From assembly GCA_963757655.1 (NCBI GenBank), contig CAVWSQ010000006.1:293356-357355 (forward strand): a stretch of DNA of 64,000 bases, written 5' to 3'. Shown here piece by piece: positions 32,164 through 36,702 of the stretch. The stretch's first letter is position 1, and every line of letters starts with the position of its first letter. A model generated the notes under the pieces. It saw only the letters and a list, made by a program, of their open reading frames with translations, searched no databases and had not been told where the DNA came from. A program made the position numbers and the translations under genes. This DNA is from an uncultured Acidobacteriota bacterium (lineage in GTDB: Bacteria; Acidobacteriota; Vicinamibacteria; Vicinamibacterales; CAVVIG01).

Positions 32164-32652
32164 GTGACACGCGCGGCGGCTGTTCCGATCCTGCTGATTC
32201 TGCTCGCCGCGCCACCGGTCAGGGCGCAGGAAGCCGTCTACATCGTCCGCCATGCCGAGCGGGTCGACCAGTCGCCTGACTCGGCGCTCTCGACGGACGG
32301 AATCGGCCGATCGTACAAGCTGCGCGATGTGCTGCGCGATGCTGGAATCACCCGGATCTTTACCTCGGAGTTGCGGCGAACGATCGAAACTGCGGCGCCA
32401 CTCGCCGCCGCGATCAAGGTCACGCCGCTACCAGTGCCGGCCGCCGACGCAGCCGACTTGGCGGCAAAGGTGGGCGCCTCCGGCGCTCACGATCGCGTCC
32501 TGGTGGTTGGCCACTCGAACACGATCCCGTCGCTGCTGCAGGCACTCCACGTCGACGCGACGATCCGAATCGGCGACGACGACTACGACAACCTGTTCAT
32601 CGTCGTTCCCCAGAAAGATGGCGCGCCTGTGCTGCTGCTGCTGAAGTACTGA
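32164..32652 (+). CDS. Histidine phosphatase (phosphoglycerate mutase superfamily), secreted
   Basis: IVRHAE, RTIETA, VVGHSNT; signal peptide. Confidence 0.87.
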   Translation: MTRAAAVPILLILLAAPPVRAQEAVYIVRHAERVDQSPDSALSTDGIGRSYKLRDVLRDAGITRIFTSELRRTIETAAPLAAAIKVTPLPVPAADAADLAAKVGASGAHDRVLVVGHSNTIPSLLQALHVDATIRIGDDDYDNLFIVVPQKDGAPVLLLLKY

Positions 32653-34007
32653 TGGCGCGCGAACGCCTGCACGGCAGCCTCAGCAGCGTCGAGTACTTCA
32701 CGTTCGGCTTCGGCACGATGATCGGCGTCGGCTGGCTCGTGCTGATGGACGACTGGCTGATGCGCGGTGGACCCGCCGGCGGTGTCCTCGGTTTTCTGCT
32801 CGGCGGCATGCTGCTGTTTCCAATCGCGCACACCTATGGCAGGCTGGTGCAGCGCATTCAGGATGCGGGCGCCGAGATCGCCTACACCGAGGGCGTGATG
32901 GCGCCGCCAATCAGCTTCGCCGCCGGCTGGACCATGGTGCTGTCGTACGCGATCGTGTGTCCCTGGGAAGCGGTCGCCACCGGCAACCTGCTGGCGCGCG
33001 TCTTTCCCGGGCTGAACAGCCACCAGTTGTACGCCATCGGCGGCAGTCCGATCTACGCGCCGCGCCTGGCGGTCGGCCTGGCGCTGACCGCGCTGGTCAC
33101 CGGCGTCAACTACCGCGGCATCAAACCGAGTGGCATCTTCCAGAATGTGATGACGTTCGGGTTGATCGCGACCTTCGCGATCTTCACGCTGCTTGGCTTC
33201 GCCAAAGGGTCGCCGTCGAACCTGCAGCCGCTGTTTGCGGTCGGACAGTCGCCGTGGCTGTCGGTCTTCCTCGTCCTTCAGATCGTGCCCTACTTCATGA
33301 CCGGGTTCGAATCGGTGGCAAAGGGATCGGAAGAAGCCAGGGCCGGATTCGATCCACGCAACTTCACGCGCGCGATCTACGCTGCCCTGATCGCCGGGTT
33401 CGTGTTCTATGTCCTGATCATCGCGGTCGTGACCTTCGTCTACCCGTGGCAAGAGATCGTGGCGGGCCACGTCCGCACCGAAGTCGCCTTCGAGCGCACG
33501 TTCGGCTCGCATCGGATCGCACAGCTGATTCTGTTCGGCGCCTTCCTGTCGCTGCTGAAGATCTTCAACGGCAACTTCGTCGCCTCGACGCGCATGCTCT
33601 ACGCGATGGGCCGGCGCAACCTCGTGCATCCGGCGCTCGGACGGGTGCATGCGGTCCACGGCACGCCGGTGGTGGCGATTGCCCTGATGGCGGTGCTGAC
33701 GGCGGCCGCGGCGATGTTCGGCGACGCCATCCTCGTACCGGTGACCGAGGTCGGCTCGCTCGCGGTCGGGATTGGCTGGCTGTCGGCGTGCGTGGCCTAC
33801 CTCCTCCGCCGCAGCCGGGAGCGGCGGCAGGACGAGTCGCCGATCATGGCCTGCCTTGGCGCGGCGGTCAGCGTCGCGATTGTGCTGATGAAGGTCGTGC
33901 CCTCAGTTCCGGGCAGCTTCACGCAGCCTGAATGGATCGCGTTCGCGGCGTGGTCGGTCATGGGGTTGGTGTTCTGGTTGGCTCGCCCCAGGCTGGCGGT
34001 CACTTGA
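32652..34007 (+). CDS. APC-family amino acid permease
   Basis: FGTMIGVGW, GFES, about 12 TM segments, TRMLYAMGR. Confidence 0.9.
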   Translation: MARERLHGSLSSVEYFTFGFGTMIGVGWLVLMDDWLMRGGPAGGVLGFLLGGMLLFPIAHTYGRLVQRIQDAGAEIAYTEGVMAPPISFAAGWTMVLSYAIVCPWEAVATGNLLARVFPGLNSHQLYAIGGSPIYAPRLAVGLALTALVTGVNYRGIKPSGIFQNVMTFGLIATFAIFTLLGFAKGSPSNLQPLFAVGQSPWLSVFLVLQIVPYFMTGFESVAKGSEEARAGFDPRNFTRAIYAALIAGFVFYVLIIAVVTFVYPWQEIVAGHVRTEVAFERTFGSHRIAQLILFGAFLSLLKIFNGNFVASTRMLYAMGRRNLVHPALGRVHAVHGTPVVAIALMAVLTAAAAMFGDAILVPVTEVGSLAVGIGWLSACVAYLLRRSRERRQDESPIMACLGAAVSVAIVLMKVVPSVPGSFTQPEWIAFAAWSVMGLVFWLARPRLAVT

Positions 34008-34023: not shown

Positions 34024-34268
34024 AATTGACAAAGCGAGCGAGGTCGGTAGCAACTGCGACGATTGACGCTCGTCTGCGTCGAGCGTTGTCAGCTTGGACA
34101 AGCTAGCAACAGCGCAAGGCTGGCGACGGAAGCGGGCGAACTCGCTGCCATCGTCGGCGCGATCGTCAGAAATGCGAGACGCAATCTTGCTTTTGGAACT
34201 CGACCGGAACTCGCTTCAGAACGTGCTCGGTTAACTTGCGTCGGAACTTGCTTTGGAGCTTGTCAATT
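34024..34268 (+). pseudogene. Remnant of a four-helix-bundle (23S IVP-like) gene bounded by 9-bp inverted repeats
   Basis: Fragments SEVGSN (one frame, then stop) and EAGELAAIVGAIVRNARRN (another frame); AATTGACAA at 34024-32 and TTGTCAATT at 34260-68. Confidence 0.5.
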
Positions 34269-34930
34269 CAGCCTTGTAAATTGCCCACCGCCTGCTGGAT
34301 GAATTGATCCTGGGGAATGCCTCCGAGGATCTCGATCTGATCGTTGATCACCGTCTTCGGGACGCCGGTGACGCGGTACTTCCTGGCCAGATCCGGAAAC
34401 TCCGTCGCTTCCACCGCGTAGGCGGTGATGTGCTCGTTGGCGAACGCCATTTCATGCGCGAGGCTGACCGCCCGCGGACAATGCGGTCAAGTCGGTGTCG
34501 AAAACACGTGGATCGTCATCGGCGCTGTGACCGCCACCACACTGGCACGATTTTCCGGTGTCAGCTGGGAGTCGTGGCCGCCGACCAGCAGCACCGCCTG
34601 GACCAGCGAGACGAACTCGTAGCCGGCTGGCGCACCGAGAAACCGGATCCGTGTGTCCCGCGTCTGGCCGTCCGCGCCCTCACTGAGCAGCGCGACGGCC
34701 GGGACGCGATCGATTCCGTACTGCGCGGCCTTGTCTTTCTCGAGAATGAAGTTCACTTCCTCGATCGCGATCTTGTCGGACAGCGCCGGCAGCTCATCGA
34801 GGATCTGCCGCGTCGGAAGGCATTGTTCGCAGTCGAGCGTCTGGGTAAAGAACAGGACGCGGACGCGGCTGGTCATCTCATCGAACGATTCGCGCAGTTT
34901 CTCCTGGTCGGTAGGGGCGAGAAGGGACAT
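34268..34930 (-). CDS. Protein-disulfide oxidoreductase (two thioredoxin folds, AhpF-NTD/PDO-like), predicted selenoprotein with Sec at TGA 34487-34489
   Basis: ORFs 34487..34930 and 34268..34450 are in one frame; CEQC in domain 1; FSTPT-U-PHCPRAV in domain 2; GVPKTVIND cis-Pro motif. Confidence 0.88.
34457..34476 (-). promoter_or_regulatory. Bacterial SECIS-like hairpin
   Basis: mRNA CGCG-GGC-[GGUCA]-GCC-U-CGCG starting 10 nt after UGA; loop begins with G about 17 nt from UGA; bulged U. Confidence 0.7.
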
Positions 34931-35007
34931 TACAGGGATTATGACAGGGTCGGGGGTCAGCGGTCAGTGGTTAGGGCTTCGGACTCAGGGCTTACCAGCC
35001 CCAGCCC

Positions 35008-35490
35008 CTATTTGAACAGATCGTCGAACGCGCGGCGGGCGCTGCTGGTCGAGCCGGCGGGTGAGGTGCCGGCGTCACGGCTCTGCGTCGTGGTGGTCTG
35101 CCGTTCGATCGTCGTGCGCGGTGAAAACAGCGCACAGGGGTTGCGCTGATCCTTGGGTGACACCCGCGCCGGCAGCTTGTCGCTCTGCGTGCACTCCCAC
35201 CGCGCGCTGGTGTCGAACGAGACGCACTGGACGCAGCTGTGTAGACCGACGCCGCATTTGGCACAGCGACTGTCGTCACCGATCGGCAGCGAGAGCAGAT
35301 GGCCACAGCGTGCGCACCGGCAGACTTCGTGCGCCGCCATCAGGTTGGGCGTCTTCGGACCGGCCGCGTCCTGCAGCTGCCGCCCGGGCGCGCGATCCTG
35401 CTTGGGCGGGCGCGGCCCCTGGGGGCCCTTCGGCCCTCGGGGCTTGTTCTCGTCCTGGTAGCCGCGTTGGCGGTATTTTCGATCGCTCAT
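35008..35490 (-). CDS. Hypothetical Cys-rich (zinc-finger-like) protein
   Basis: MSDRKYRQRGYQD; CARC, CAKC, CVQC plus further Cys; ends AFDDLFK. Confidence 0.78.
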   Translation of the reverse strand: MSDRKYRQRGYQDENKPRGPKGPQGPRPPKQDRAPGRQLQDAAGPKTPNLMAAHEVCRCARCGHLLSLPIGDDSRCAKCGVGLHSCVQCVSFDTSARWECTQSDKLPARVSPKDQRNPCALFSPRTTIERQTTTTQSRDAGTSPAGSTSSARRAFDDLFK

Positions 35491-35517
35491 TGTGCTTTCG
35501 TCGCCGCCGTCCTCTTC

Positions 35518-35586
35518 GTAGGGCACGGCCTTTAGGCCGTGCGGCCGTTCCTCTTCGTAGGGCACGGCCTTAAGGCCGTGCCCTAC
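35518..35586. repeat. Two GTAG-type REP palindromes
   Basis: GTAGGGCACGGCCTTTAGGCCGTGC and a perfect 30-bp palindrome GTAGGGCACGGCCTTAAGGCCGTGCCCTAC. Confidence 0.88.
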
Positions 35587-35607
35587 GGCGACCATTTGTG
35601 AGTGCGA

Positions 35608-36702
35608 CTATTGTGACATCGCAGGCGCGAGCTCTCTGATGAACTGGTCGAGATACTTCCCCCAGATGGCCGGCAGCGAGTGCGTGCCGTGCCCGCGAGT
35701 CTGCGCCGTCGTCGGCAGCAGCACGTAGCGTCCATGCTTCACGCGCGGCATCAGCTTTTCCATGATCCCCAGCTCCGGCGGGTTCACCACATCGTCGGCC
35801 GAATTGATGGCGAGCAGATGCGCGGTGATCTTCTCCAAGTTTGGCGACGGATCATAATCGCGCGACGAGTTGAACTGATACAGCATGTCGTTGGCGTCAT
35901 TGGCCGCGAGACGCGTCTTCAGCTGGGACTCGTACCAGGTGTCCGCCGCGTCGCGCGTCGGGCCCGATTTGTGCCAGCCGATCGGGCTGCTGGTCATCAT
36001 CATCAGCAGGTTGACGGCGCCGACCATGCCGGCGTGTGGCTGCTCCGTGTACTCGCCGCTCATGTAGGCCGGATCCCGCGTGATGCTGTCCATGATCATC
36101 GTGCGCATGATGCGGTTGCGTCCGGCGATCTGCGTCGGCGCGCTGGCCAGCGGCACCAGGCCGTCGACGAACTCGGGATAGGTCTCACCCCAGATCCAGC
36201 AATGCATCGCACCCATCGAGGTGCCGAGGACGAGGCGGAGGTGATTCACTTTCAGACCCTCGATCAGCATCGCGTGCTGCGCCCGGACCATGTCGTCGTA
36301 CGTGTATTTCGGAAAACGAGCGTGCAACCCGTCGCTCGGCTTGCTCGACTTTCCGTGACCGATGCCGTCGGGGAGGATGATGAAGTAACGCGTCGCGTCG
36401 AGAATCTGCCCGGCGGCGAACAGCTGTCCGCCGAAGGTCTGCGACAGGAACGAGGAGCCGCTGCCGCCGGTACCGTGCAGGATCATCACCGCGTTGCGGA
36501 CGACGCCAGAACCGTCGCGCTGCGGCGTGCCGATGGTCCGGTAGTGCAGGCGCAACGACGGCAGCGTTTCGCCCGATGCGAATGTGAAATCGCGGACGAC
36601 ATAGTCGCCCTCGACCGCCGCGGGGAACTCGGCCGCGCGAACCGCCGGCACCGCGGCGAGGATGACCAGGACGAGGACGACCGACCGCTGAAAAACCTTC
36701 AT
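35608..36702 (-). CDS. Secreted alpha/beta hydrolase (homoserine O-acetyltransferase-like fold)
   Basis: LHGTGGSG, GTSMGAM nucleophile elbow, NSADD, GHGTH; signal peptide. Confidence 0.85.
   Translation of the reverse strand: MKVFQRSVVLVLVILAAVPAVRAAEFPAAVEGDYVVRDFTFASGETLPSLRLHYRTIGTPQRDGSGVVRNAVMILHGTGGSGSSFLSQTFGGQLFAAGQILDATRYFIILPDGIGHGKSSKPSDGLHARFPKYTYDDMVRAQHAMLIEGLKVNHLRLVLGTSMGAMHCWIWGETYPEFVDGLVPLASAPTQIAGRNRIMRTMIMDSITRDPAYMSGEYTEQPHAGMVGAVNLLMMMTSSPIGWHKSGPTRDAADTWYESQLKTRLAANDANDMLYQFNSSRDYDPSPNLEKITAHLLAINSADDVVNPPELGIMEKLMPRVKHGRYVLLPTTAQTRGHGTHSLPAIWGKYLDQFIRELAPAMSQ

Follow-up and report, generated by a model that had tools for sequence, protein, structure and literature searches.

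A probable selenocysteine-containing protein disulfide oxidoreductase encoded across an in-frame UGA in an uncultured soil acidobacterium, and the alternative RNA helix at its UGA codon

In a 64,000-nucleotide stretch of DNA from an uncultured Acidobacteriota bacterium (assembly GCA_963757655.1, contig CAVWSQ010000006.1, positions 293,356 to 357,355; the whole stretch is called the window here), a standard listing of open reading frames (ORFs) calls two separate ORFs on the minus strand, 34487..34930 (147 aa) and 34268..34450 (60 aa). Are these two small genes, the remains of a broken one, or a single gene in which an internal TGA is read as selenocysteine (Sec, U)? We find that the locus is very probably one gene, encoding a UGA-recoded, Sec-containing protein disulfide oxidoreductase (PDO) of the TIGR02187 family (glutaredoxin-like domain protein) in an uncultured soil acidobacterium related to the Vicinamibacterales. 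With TGA read as U, the minus strand from 34930 to 34268 forms one frame of 220 residues that has a single internal TGA and ends at a TGA stop (34270-34268). The internal TGA (34487..34489, minus strand) is codon 148, in the context VFSTPT-U-PHCPRA, and specifies the first residue of a U-P-H-C motif. The last residue of the motif, Cys151 (TGT, 34478..34480, minus strand; columns T16 and G17 are invariant in the ortholog alignment), would be the resolving cysteine. A second site, CEQC (C34-E-Q-C37; 34820..34831, minus strand), lies in the predicted first thioredoxin-fold unit. A sequence-only reading of this DNA had joined the two ORFs into one frame broken by a single TGA and had named both the CEQC and the UPHC sites; all of this is borne out by the translation (residues 34-37 and 148-151), on the minus strand, which that reading had left unstated. 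Translation of the same coordinates on the plus strand was also tried and gave no sensible protein.

The protein matches the NCBIfam model TIGR02187.2 (PDO_seleno_TRX) with 247.9 bits against a curated cut-off of 185 (E 5.8e-74), the alignment running from residue 7 to 214 on profile positions 3-206 of 209, while Pfam thioredoxin/glutaredoxin-type domains are matched by the C-terminal unit only (residues 121-215). By sequence comparison, the best match among solved structures is the PDO of Pyrococcus furiosus (PDB 1a8l; E 6.9e-34), residues 1-216 aligning on 1-223, with U148-PHC on its CPYC and CEQC on its CQYC. This end-to-end alignment suggests a single chain of about 220 residues built of two thioredoxin-fold units, like 1a8l itself and the glutaredoxin-like proteins 1j08, 2ywm, 2ayt and 2hls, which have a CxxC in each unit; the solved PDOs, however, carry Cys where the window protein has Sec, and PY within the motif where it has PH. 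The protein is also similar to the N-terminal domains of AhpF (E 5.9e-12 for PDB 1zyn and 9.8e-11 for 1hyu), whose double thioredoxin fold is homologous to its own. However, AhpF continues into an FAD/NADH disulfide reductase part, whereas the window protein is free-standing at 220 residues, without a flavoprotein reductase part, and the full-length AhpF models score far below their cut-offs (TIGR03140, 68.7 versus 502.9 bits, over residues 90-205; TIGR03143, 92.9 versus 687.65 bits). It is therefore a free-standing homolog of the AhpF N-terminal domain and not AhpF, and neither ahpC nor ahpF was found near the gene. The PDO-type assignment proposed earlier is supported by the TIGR02187 match and the 1a8l alignment, and the statement that selenoproteins of the AhpF N-terminal/PDO type are known agrees with that family match and with their listing in the literature (see below).

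The two redox motifs differ in how well they are kept. The C-terminal U/CxxC is present in all 79 orthologs and paralogs examined, just as the C-terminal CxxC is invariant in AhpF N-terminal domains, and the N-terminal CxxC is lost in some orthologs, being GEAC in G015 (locus L040) and devoid of Cys in G019 (L048). Here and below, G000 denotes the genome that carries the window, other G numbers denote related or same-phylum genomes, and L numbers denote individual loci. G000 additionally harbors a Cys-containing PDO paralog with a CPYC site and 36% identity (C1:1824899-1825519, minus strand; L054), and G016 likewise carries one TGA form and one Cys form.

Evidence for recoding comes from the codon itself in other genomes. 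Among 31 related genomes, 23 have a match to the gene, in 25 rows, and the codon is TGA in 15 rows and TGT or TGC in 10. A wider sample, 401 genomes of the phylum, gave matches at E <= 1e-30 in 72 of them (78 rows), and 39 of these rows have one in-frame TGA. From this sample we fetched the 34 TGA rows not yet in the near set together with 20 of the 38 rows without a stop; 15 others of the 38 (G123, G279, G202, G158, G299, G099, G309, G088, G269, G388, G313 and the second matches of G054, G071, G171 and G056) were left out, as was the row of G059, which has TAG and TAA. The TGA falls at exactly this codon in 33 of the 34 fetched rows, the exception being G389, which has TGT there, so that 38 of the 39 single-TGA rows of the phylum sample have TGA at this position. 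The combined set consists of 48 TGA forms and 31 TGT/TGC forms, two of the latter being paralogs. A scan of named genome records, which partly overlaps the genome sample (for example, L115 is G011) and hence is not independent of it, gave 79 loci, with TGA in 38 of the 77 that have the motif. By their record titles the close relatives belong to Acidobacteriota and Vicinamibacterales, and TGA forms occur also in records of Chloroflexota, Bacillota and Desulfatiglandales. Sec and Cys forms are both found within one genus.

In the alignment the TGA coincides with the first of the two cysteines in the C-terminal CxxC, where the earlier proposal had expected homologs to have Cys, and close orthologs do have TGA at this codon. 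Moreover, all 14 TGA orthologs in the near set resemble the window protein more closely over the 68-72 residues that follow the TGA than over the approximately 141-147 residues that precede it (in G004, for example, 91.2% versus 82.3%), and we therefore conclude that the part downstream of the TGA is under protein-level selection. The codon is also reproduced in sequencing data: a contig assembled from a public run (X2), which may be the source sample, spans 34473-34623 with 0 differences, and a second run from another study (X4) has no other letter there. All four runs compared were contigs of thin cover, parts of the gene being uncovered, and no RNA run was among those listed for this stretch.

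The genome also encodes most of the machinery needed to read the codon as Sec. The G000 assembly has 8 contigs, a length of 6.43 Mb and a completeness of 97.8%. It contains selA (C2:438751-440121; 541 bits; an open frame of 474 aa) and selB (C3:749256-751220; 339.8 bits; 671 aa), neither with an internal stop, and a tRNA-Sec gene (C4:159527-159623), which has the sole UCA anticodon among 50 tRNAs. The acceptor, T and D stems of this tRNA(UCA) are 8, 5 and 6 bp long, its variable arm is long and its discriminator is G, which is the ordinary bacterial tRNA-Sec form and not that of the Cys look-alikes with U73 in the available text of a published survey (PMC5389517). There is, furthermore, a second selenoprotein gene, SelW-like (Rdx, PF10262; C2:254553-254759, minus strand; L114), with an in-frame TGA in the motif C-K-V-U and a hairpin with a CGUGU loop downstream of it. 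For formate dehydrogenase alpha (TIGR01553) G000 gave no match over the cut-off and none with an internal TGA. Reading of the TGA in the PDO gene as Trp or Gly was considered separately and is ruled out by the gene's own TGA stop, the Cys of the homologs and the canonical tRNA-Sec.

In bacteria the selenocysteine insertion sequence (SECIS) hairpin lies just 3' of the UGA, and the earlier proposal had placed one 10 nt downstream of the UGA, with a G early in the apical loop. This is confirmed: on the minus strand the UGA is followed by the 10 nt CCGCAUUGUC and then by CGCGGGC-GGUCA-GCCUCGCG, and the predicted apical hairpin occupies 34457..34476 (minus strand). Its stem, numbered by alignment column, consists of C20-G39, G21-C38, C22-G37, G23-C36, G24-C34, G25-C33 and C26-G32, with U35 bulged, and its 5-nt loop GGUCA (34469-34465) begins 17 nt after the UGA. 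ViennaRNA folds columns 18-42 into this hairpin, with 7 pairs and the one bulged U, at -11.7 kcal/mol. The bacterial model, as given in the Figure 2 legend of a 2026 review, has a loop of 3-9 nt with G in its first two positions (G or U generally comes next), an upper stem of 4-16 bp, 16-37 nt from UGA to loop and an energy of at most -7.5 kcal/mol (PMC13188914). The window hairpin agrees with the published loop, stem, spacing and energy limits if a bulge is allowed. As in the bSECISearch model, the stem-loop lies within the coding sequence, shortly 3' of the UGA; it differs from the bSECISearch consensus in having a bulged U in the 3' strand of the stem and no more than 3-4 contiguous upper-stem bp ahead of this bulge.

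The hairpin is a property of the TGA forms. When each sequence is folded separately, a hairpin with G28-U29 in its apical loop is found in 47 of the 48 TGA forms (mean -10.5 kcal/mol) versus 12 of the 31 Cys forms (mean -5.9 kcal/mol). The Mann-Whitney p for the difference in energy is 1.5e-10, which overstates it, the relatives not being independent; at matched GC the means are -10.8 (TGA, n=45) versus -6.6 kcal/mol (Cys, n=15). A geometry-only test that allows no bulge is passed by all 77 distinct TGA sequences versus 32 of 67 Cys sequences. In the Cys forms of the near clade, the Arg codon is CGC instead of CGG, which breaks the stem. Columns 18-42 of the window gene are identical in G004, G011 and G006, while G002 differs only at column 18, outside the stem. 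Across the orthologs the two sides of the stem change in compensation: columns 22/36 are C-G, G-C, A-U or U-G, and columns 23/36 are G-C in 19 sequences and C-G in 8. At the codon level, Arg CGG/AGG/GGG is matched by Leu CUG/CUU/CUC across lineages, and Pro CCG/CCC by CUC/CUG in a lineage family with a GUC-GUC loop, so that the compensating changes fall mostly at synonymous sites of Pro, Arg and Leu codons.

Beyond the apical part, when the 50 nt that start at the UGA are folded, the structure of minimum free energy pairs a distal segment GCGUUC (34442..34447, minus strand) with GA.CGC of 34488-34483. The resulting extended hairpin, with the UGA at its base, is compatible with the SECIS; 77.9% of its cells are paired over the 48 sequences, and none of 500 shuffles equals it, either by covariation score or by the number of doubly changed cells. 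In the SECIS of Escherichia coli fdhF a lower helix reaches the UGA itself, and the possible lower helix in the window would be alike. Across the 48 TGA orthologs the position of the hairpin and a GU-containing loop are kept, the register shifts, with partner sums of 57, 58 or 59, and the loops include GGUCA, GUG, CGGUCG and CGUGUU. GGU-loop hairpins follow the UGA in the selD mRNAs of relatives as well.

Several results, however, make the case for the SECIS weaker. Scored without a bulge, the best hairpin of the window reaches -7.0 kcal/mol, short of -7.5, and adding the energy threshold to the bulge-free test leaves only 36 of the 77 TGA sequences passing, versus 8 of the 67 Cys sequences. 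In the second sample, a flag for GU in a hairpin loop separates the two forms poorly (26 of 38 TGA versus 25 of 39 Cys). With one register fixed for all sequences, only 67.4% of the cells fit, since the register is offset by one base between lineages. A permissive Rfam scan of 34200-35000 returned no SECIS family and only a chance-level nhaA-II match (19.9 bits versus a gathering score of 70.4, E 1.9), a negative result that is uninformative since bacterial SECIS elements are poorly covered there. On balance, the folding, the ortholog hairpins, the changes of pair type and the published constraints make the putative SECIS element well supported.

A further claim of the sequence-only reading was that UGACCGC, which contains the UGA, can pair perfectly with GCGGUCA in a 7-bp helix that would bury the UGA and disrupt the SECIS loop, and that this might tune recoding. 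The first part stands. The 5' arm (34483..34489, minus strand) and the 3' arm (34465..34471, minus strand) are perfectly complementary, and the UGA is buried in the predicted fold. The 3' arm takes in the entire apical loop of the SECIS together with its two uppermost stem pairs; the letters of the 5' arm have an alternative partner in 34442-34447, with which they can form the base of the extended SECIS. The second part, tuning, is unsupported: the helix is complete in 22 of the 48 TGA orthologs, and 500 of 500 shuffles equal its pairing. Nevertheless, the idea of a selected switch, one that limits or times SECIS formation and so tunes Sec insertion versus termination, deserves to be weighed, even though we regard it as unlikely. 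The helix sits in the minimum-free-energy folds of the 71- and 81-nt contexts, and in the predicted ensemble of the naked 81-nt RNA it takes a share of 0.79 versus 0.11 for the SECIS hairpin, which tells against the SECIS as well; the two folds differ by about 1.2 kcal/mol, a difference that the error of the energy model covers. Over the 48 TGA orthologs 83.9% of the helix cells pair, versus 25-52% when the partner is slid, and the helix is predicted to be dominant in 18 of the 48.

Against a switch, no pair of the helix is changed on both sides, and since shuffles reach the observed pairing, the make-up of the columns alone explains it. The 5' arm is UGA followed by CC, N and C, fixed by Sec-Pro-His, and in the 3' arm G25, C26, G28 and U29 are fixed by Ala-Val, while G27, C30 and A31 vary freely; because the 5' arm is the UGA and fixed codon letters, covariation of the helix cannot arise. 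The Pro wobble is the only free site at which the helix can be put to a test. The pairing base G stands there in 54 of 75 TGA forms and in 30 of 59 Cys forms (Fisher p 0.019, with no correction for relatedness); at matched GC the enrichment is smaller, with 38 of 49 versus 25 of 39, and this is a weak hint at most. Eighteen of the 48 orthologs have at most five of the seven pairs, most of them in lineages with GCC-GUG in place of GCG-GUC, and yet the SECIS is kept in all but one. The same UGA-proximal letters pair about as well (the 77.9% given above) with the distal segment, with the SECIS kept. Nor is burial of the UGA out of the ordinary: the local folding energy has z = 0.39, 130 of 200 shuffles fold at least as well, and 300 random triplets from the GC-rich genome G000 have a predicted pairing of 0.59 on average, 24% of them being buried as deeply as the UGA (0.87). 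Finally, when the UGA is in the ribosomal A site the 5' arm lies inside the ribosome, and the helix cannot compete at decoding; it could therefore act only before the ribosome arrives. The lower SECIS helix, according to the available text of the review cited above, is unwound on the ribosome (PMC13188914). Most likely, then, the alternative helix is a by-product of the fixed Sec-Pro-His codons and a GGUC-type SECIS loop, and not a tuning device.

The remaining argument for a switch comes from selD, since in three of six selD mRNAs of relatives a UGA-containing helix that uses one arm of the GGU-loop hairpin is predicted. These competing helices keep the tuning idea alive, but may equally reflect GC content. 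In the selD genes L022, L026 and L027, the Sec UGA is predicted to be paired with the 5' arm of the downstream GGU-loop hairpin. A search of the literature on alternative or competing structures at bacterial SECIS elements found nothing on point.

Two bolder accounts can be set beside the by-product reading, and we consider either to be quite unlikely. According to the first, in this acidobacterial lineage the naked mRNA would be closed, hiding the UGA and the SelB site until a ribosome opens it, so that SelB loading would be co-translational and rate-limiting, a kinetic gate on Sec insertion; were this true, the helices in three of six selD mRNAs would make it a recurrent design and not an accident. 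According to the second, several genomes (G000, G005, G009 and G016) would truly be without selD and would obtain activated selenium by another route.

The second account leads to a difficulty for Sec insertion in this organism. A check for selA, selB, selC and selD had been suggested along with the original prediction, and while the first three are present, as described above, selD was not found in the assembly. In G000 the family model TIGR00476 reaches at best 60.8 bits against a cut-off of 125, and NF002098 gives nothing over its cut-off. Searches of G000 by tblastn and blastn with the genes of six relatives failed to find selD, tblastn matching only the thiL region, and the four AIR-synthase-type ORFs of the genome are ThiL, two HypE and PurM. 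On the other hand, of the 31 genomes searched, G000 among them, 24 do have selD, in most cases with an in-frame TGA in the gene itself. The 20-kb neighborhood of selD in the two relatives closest to G000 has no orthologs in G000. All of this counts against the recoding of the UGA as Sec. In the closest relative, selD lies within about 216 kb that are not colinear with G000, which proves neither a gap nor a loss. G005, G009 and G016 likewise have selA and tRNA-Sec, with no selD match over the cut-off.

One may thus ask whether the UGA and the SECIS are kept without being read as Sec, the tRNA(UCA) delivering Ser or Cys where selenophosphate synthetase is lacking, or the gene decaying. Apart from the failure of two family models and tblastn to find selD in G000, and the similar state of G005, G009 and G016, this would have a precedent of sorts in the opal-suppressing, Cys-carrying tRNA-Sec look-alikes of other phyla and the odd suppressor-like tRNAs of Acidobacteria in the available text of PMC5389517. 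However, the frames of selA and selB are without internal stops, the only tRNA(UCA) has the G discriminator and the 8/5 arms and not the U73 of the Cys look-alikes, the SECIS is identical to that of the selD-bearing relatives G004, G011 and G006 (G002 differing at column 18 only), and a second intact UGA selenoprotein gene has been retained. The assembly, moreover, is 97.8% complete, and the selD region of the relative lies in the non-colinear segment of about 216 kb. We hold this explanation to be very improbable. Because selA, selB and selC are intact, the SECIS is unchanged and the second UGA gene is kept, we favor an unassembled piece over loss of selD; a missing or unbinned piece is the simpler reading. 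Still less can be said for a nonsense mutation or sequencing error in a pseudogene or between two small genes, for which standard ORF calling, with its two ORFs, speaks, and which is extremely improbable and was rejected given that 48 orthologs, each assembled independently, have TGA at this codon, that the downstream part is the better conserved one in 14 of 14, that the 60-aa ORF alone lacks the redox motif, and that the public-run contig has the same codon.

If the UGA at 34489-34487 is read as Sec, SelB with Sec-tRNA(Sec) would bind the hairpin at 34476-34457, which would stand at the mRNA entrance of the ribosome when the UGA is in the A site. U148-P-H-C151 would then be the main redox centre, with substrate disulfides as the target of the selenolate and Cys151 as the residue that resolves the selenenylsulfide, and C34-E-Q-C37 would be a second site, one that some orthologs have lost. 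Selenium insertion at the UGA, as well as the catalytic roles of U148 and C151, is predicted here from the sequence and its homologs. The reductant is probably a thioredoxin reductase, as in archaeal PDO systems.

The gene is flanked by an amino-acid permease gene (32652-34007, plus strand), with which it is convergent, and, upstream, by a Cys-rich hypothetical ORF (35008..35595, minus strand), followed by an alpha/beta hydrolase gene (36702..35608, minus strand). The Cys-rich ORF probably starts at 35490, its conserved part beginning near residue 34-36, and has several CxxC pairs. It adjoins the PDO gene in 20 of 23 related loci, those with Sec and Cys forms alike. It has no Pfam family and no meaningful NCBIfam match, and in the Atlas it falls into clusters of hypothetical proteins whose commonest phylum is Acidobacteriota. 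The Cys-rich protein is a possible partner or substrate of the PDO. Between this ORF and the PDO gene there is a promoter-like site of sigma-70 type with an extended -10 (34938..34967, minus strand; CTGACC, 18 nt, TG-CATAAT), recognized by consensus match only (1 site versus a shuffle mean of 0.2). Its end is 7 nt upstream of the ATG, and the interval has no Shine-Dalgarno motif, a layout by which the PDO mRNA may be leaderless.

The family, its UxxC site and its status as a selenoprotein are already in the literature and in NCBIfam, and what is new here is one more member. In its available text, the 2026 review lists PDO as a UxxC selenoprotein predicted with high confidence (PMC13188914), and PDO selenoproteins are tabulated for Carboxydothermus hydrogenoformans and Symbiobacterium thermophilum in the available part of an earlier paper (PMC1794560). 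The window protein shares with those catalogued its hidden Markov model family, the Sec position in UxxC, one Sec per protein and the existence of Cys homologs. It differs from them in its host, metagenome-assembled genomes of soil Acidobacteriota/Vicinamibacterales, in the wide spread of the Sec form in the order and in the lineage-specific registers of its SECIS. The string "acidobacteri" has 0 occurrences in the available text of the 2026 review (PMC13188914). A search of the literature on selenoproteomes of Acidobacteria found no title about the PDO family, and we do not claim the acidobacterial members to be unpublished.

What follows from this? The family itself offers no new biology, and the idea of a competing fold would be of moderate interest if shown experimentally. 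The regulatory role of the alternative helix is unsupported, and the reading of the locus as a hidden selenoprotein gene is correct. For annotation, it means that gene callers split the PDO gene into two ORFs, and consequently that metagenome-assembled genomes of soil Acidobacteriota under-report a widespread selenoprotein. For the family, the orthologs provide a well-sampled natural series for the exchange of Sec and Cys and for the drift of the SECIS register inside a constrained coding sequence.

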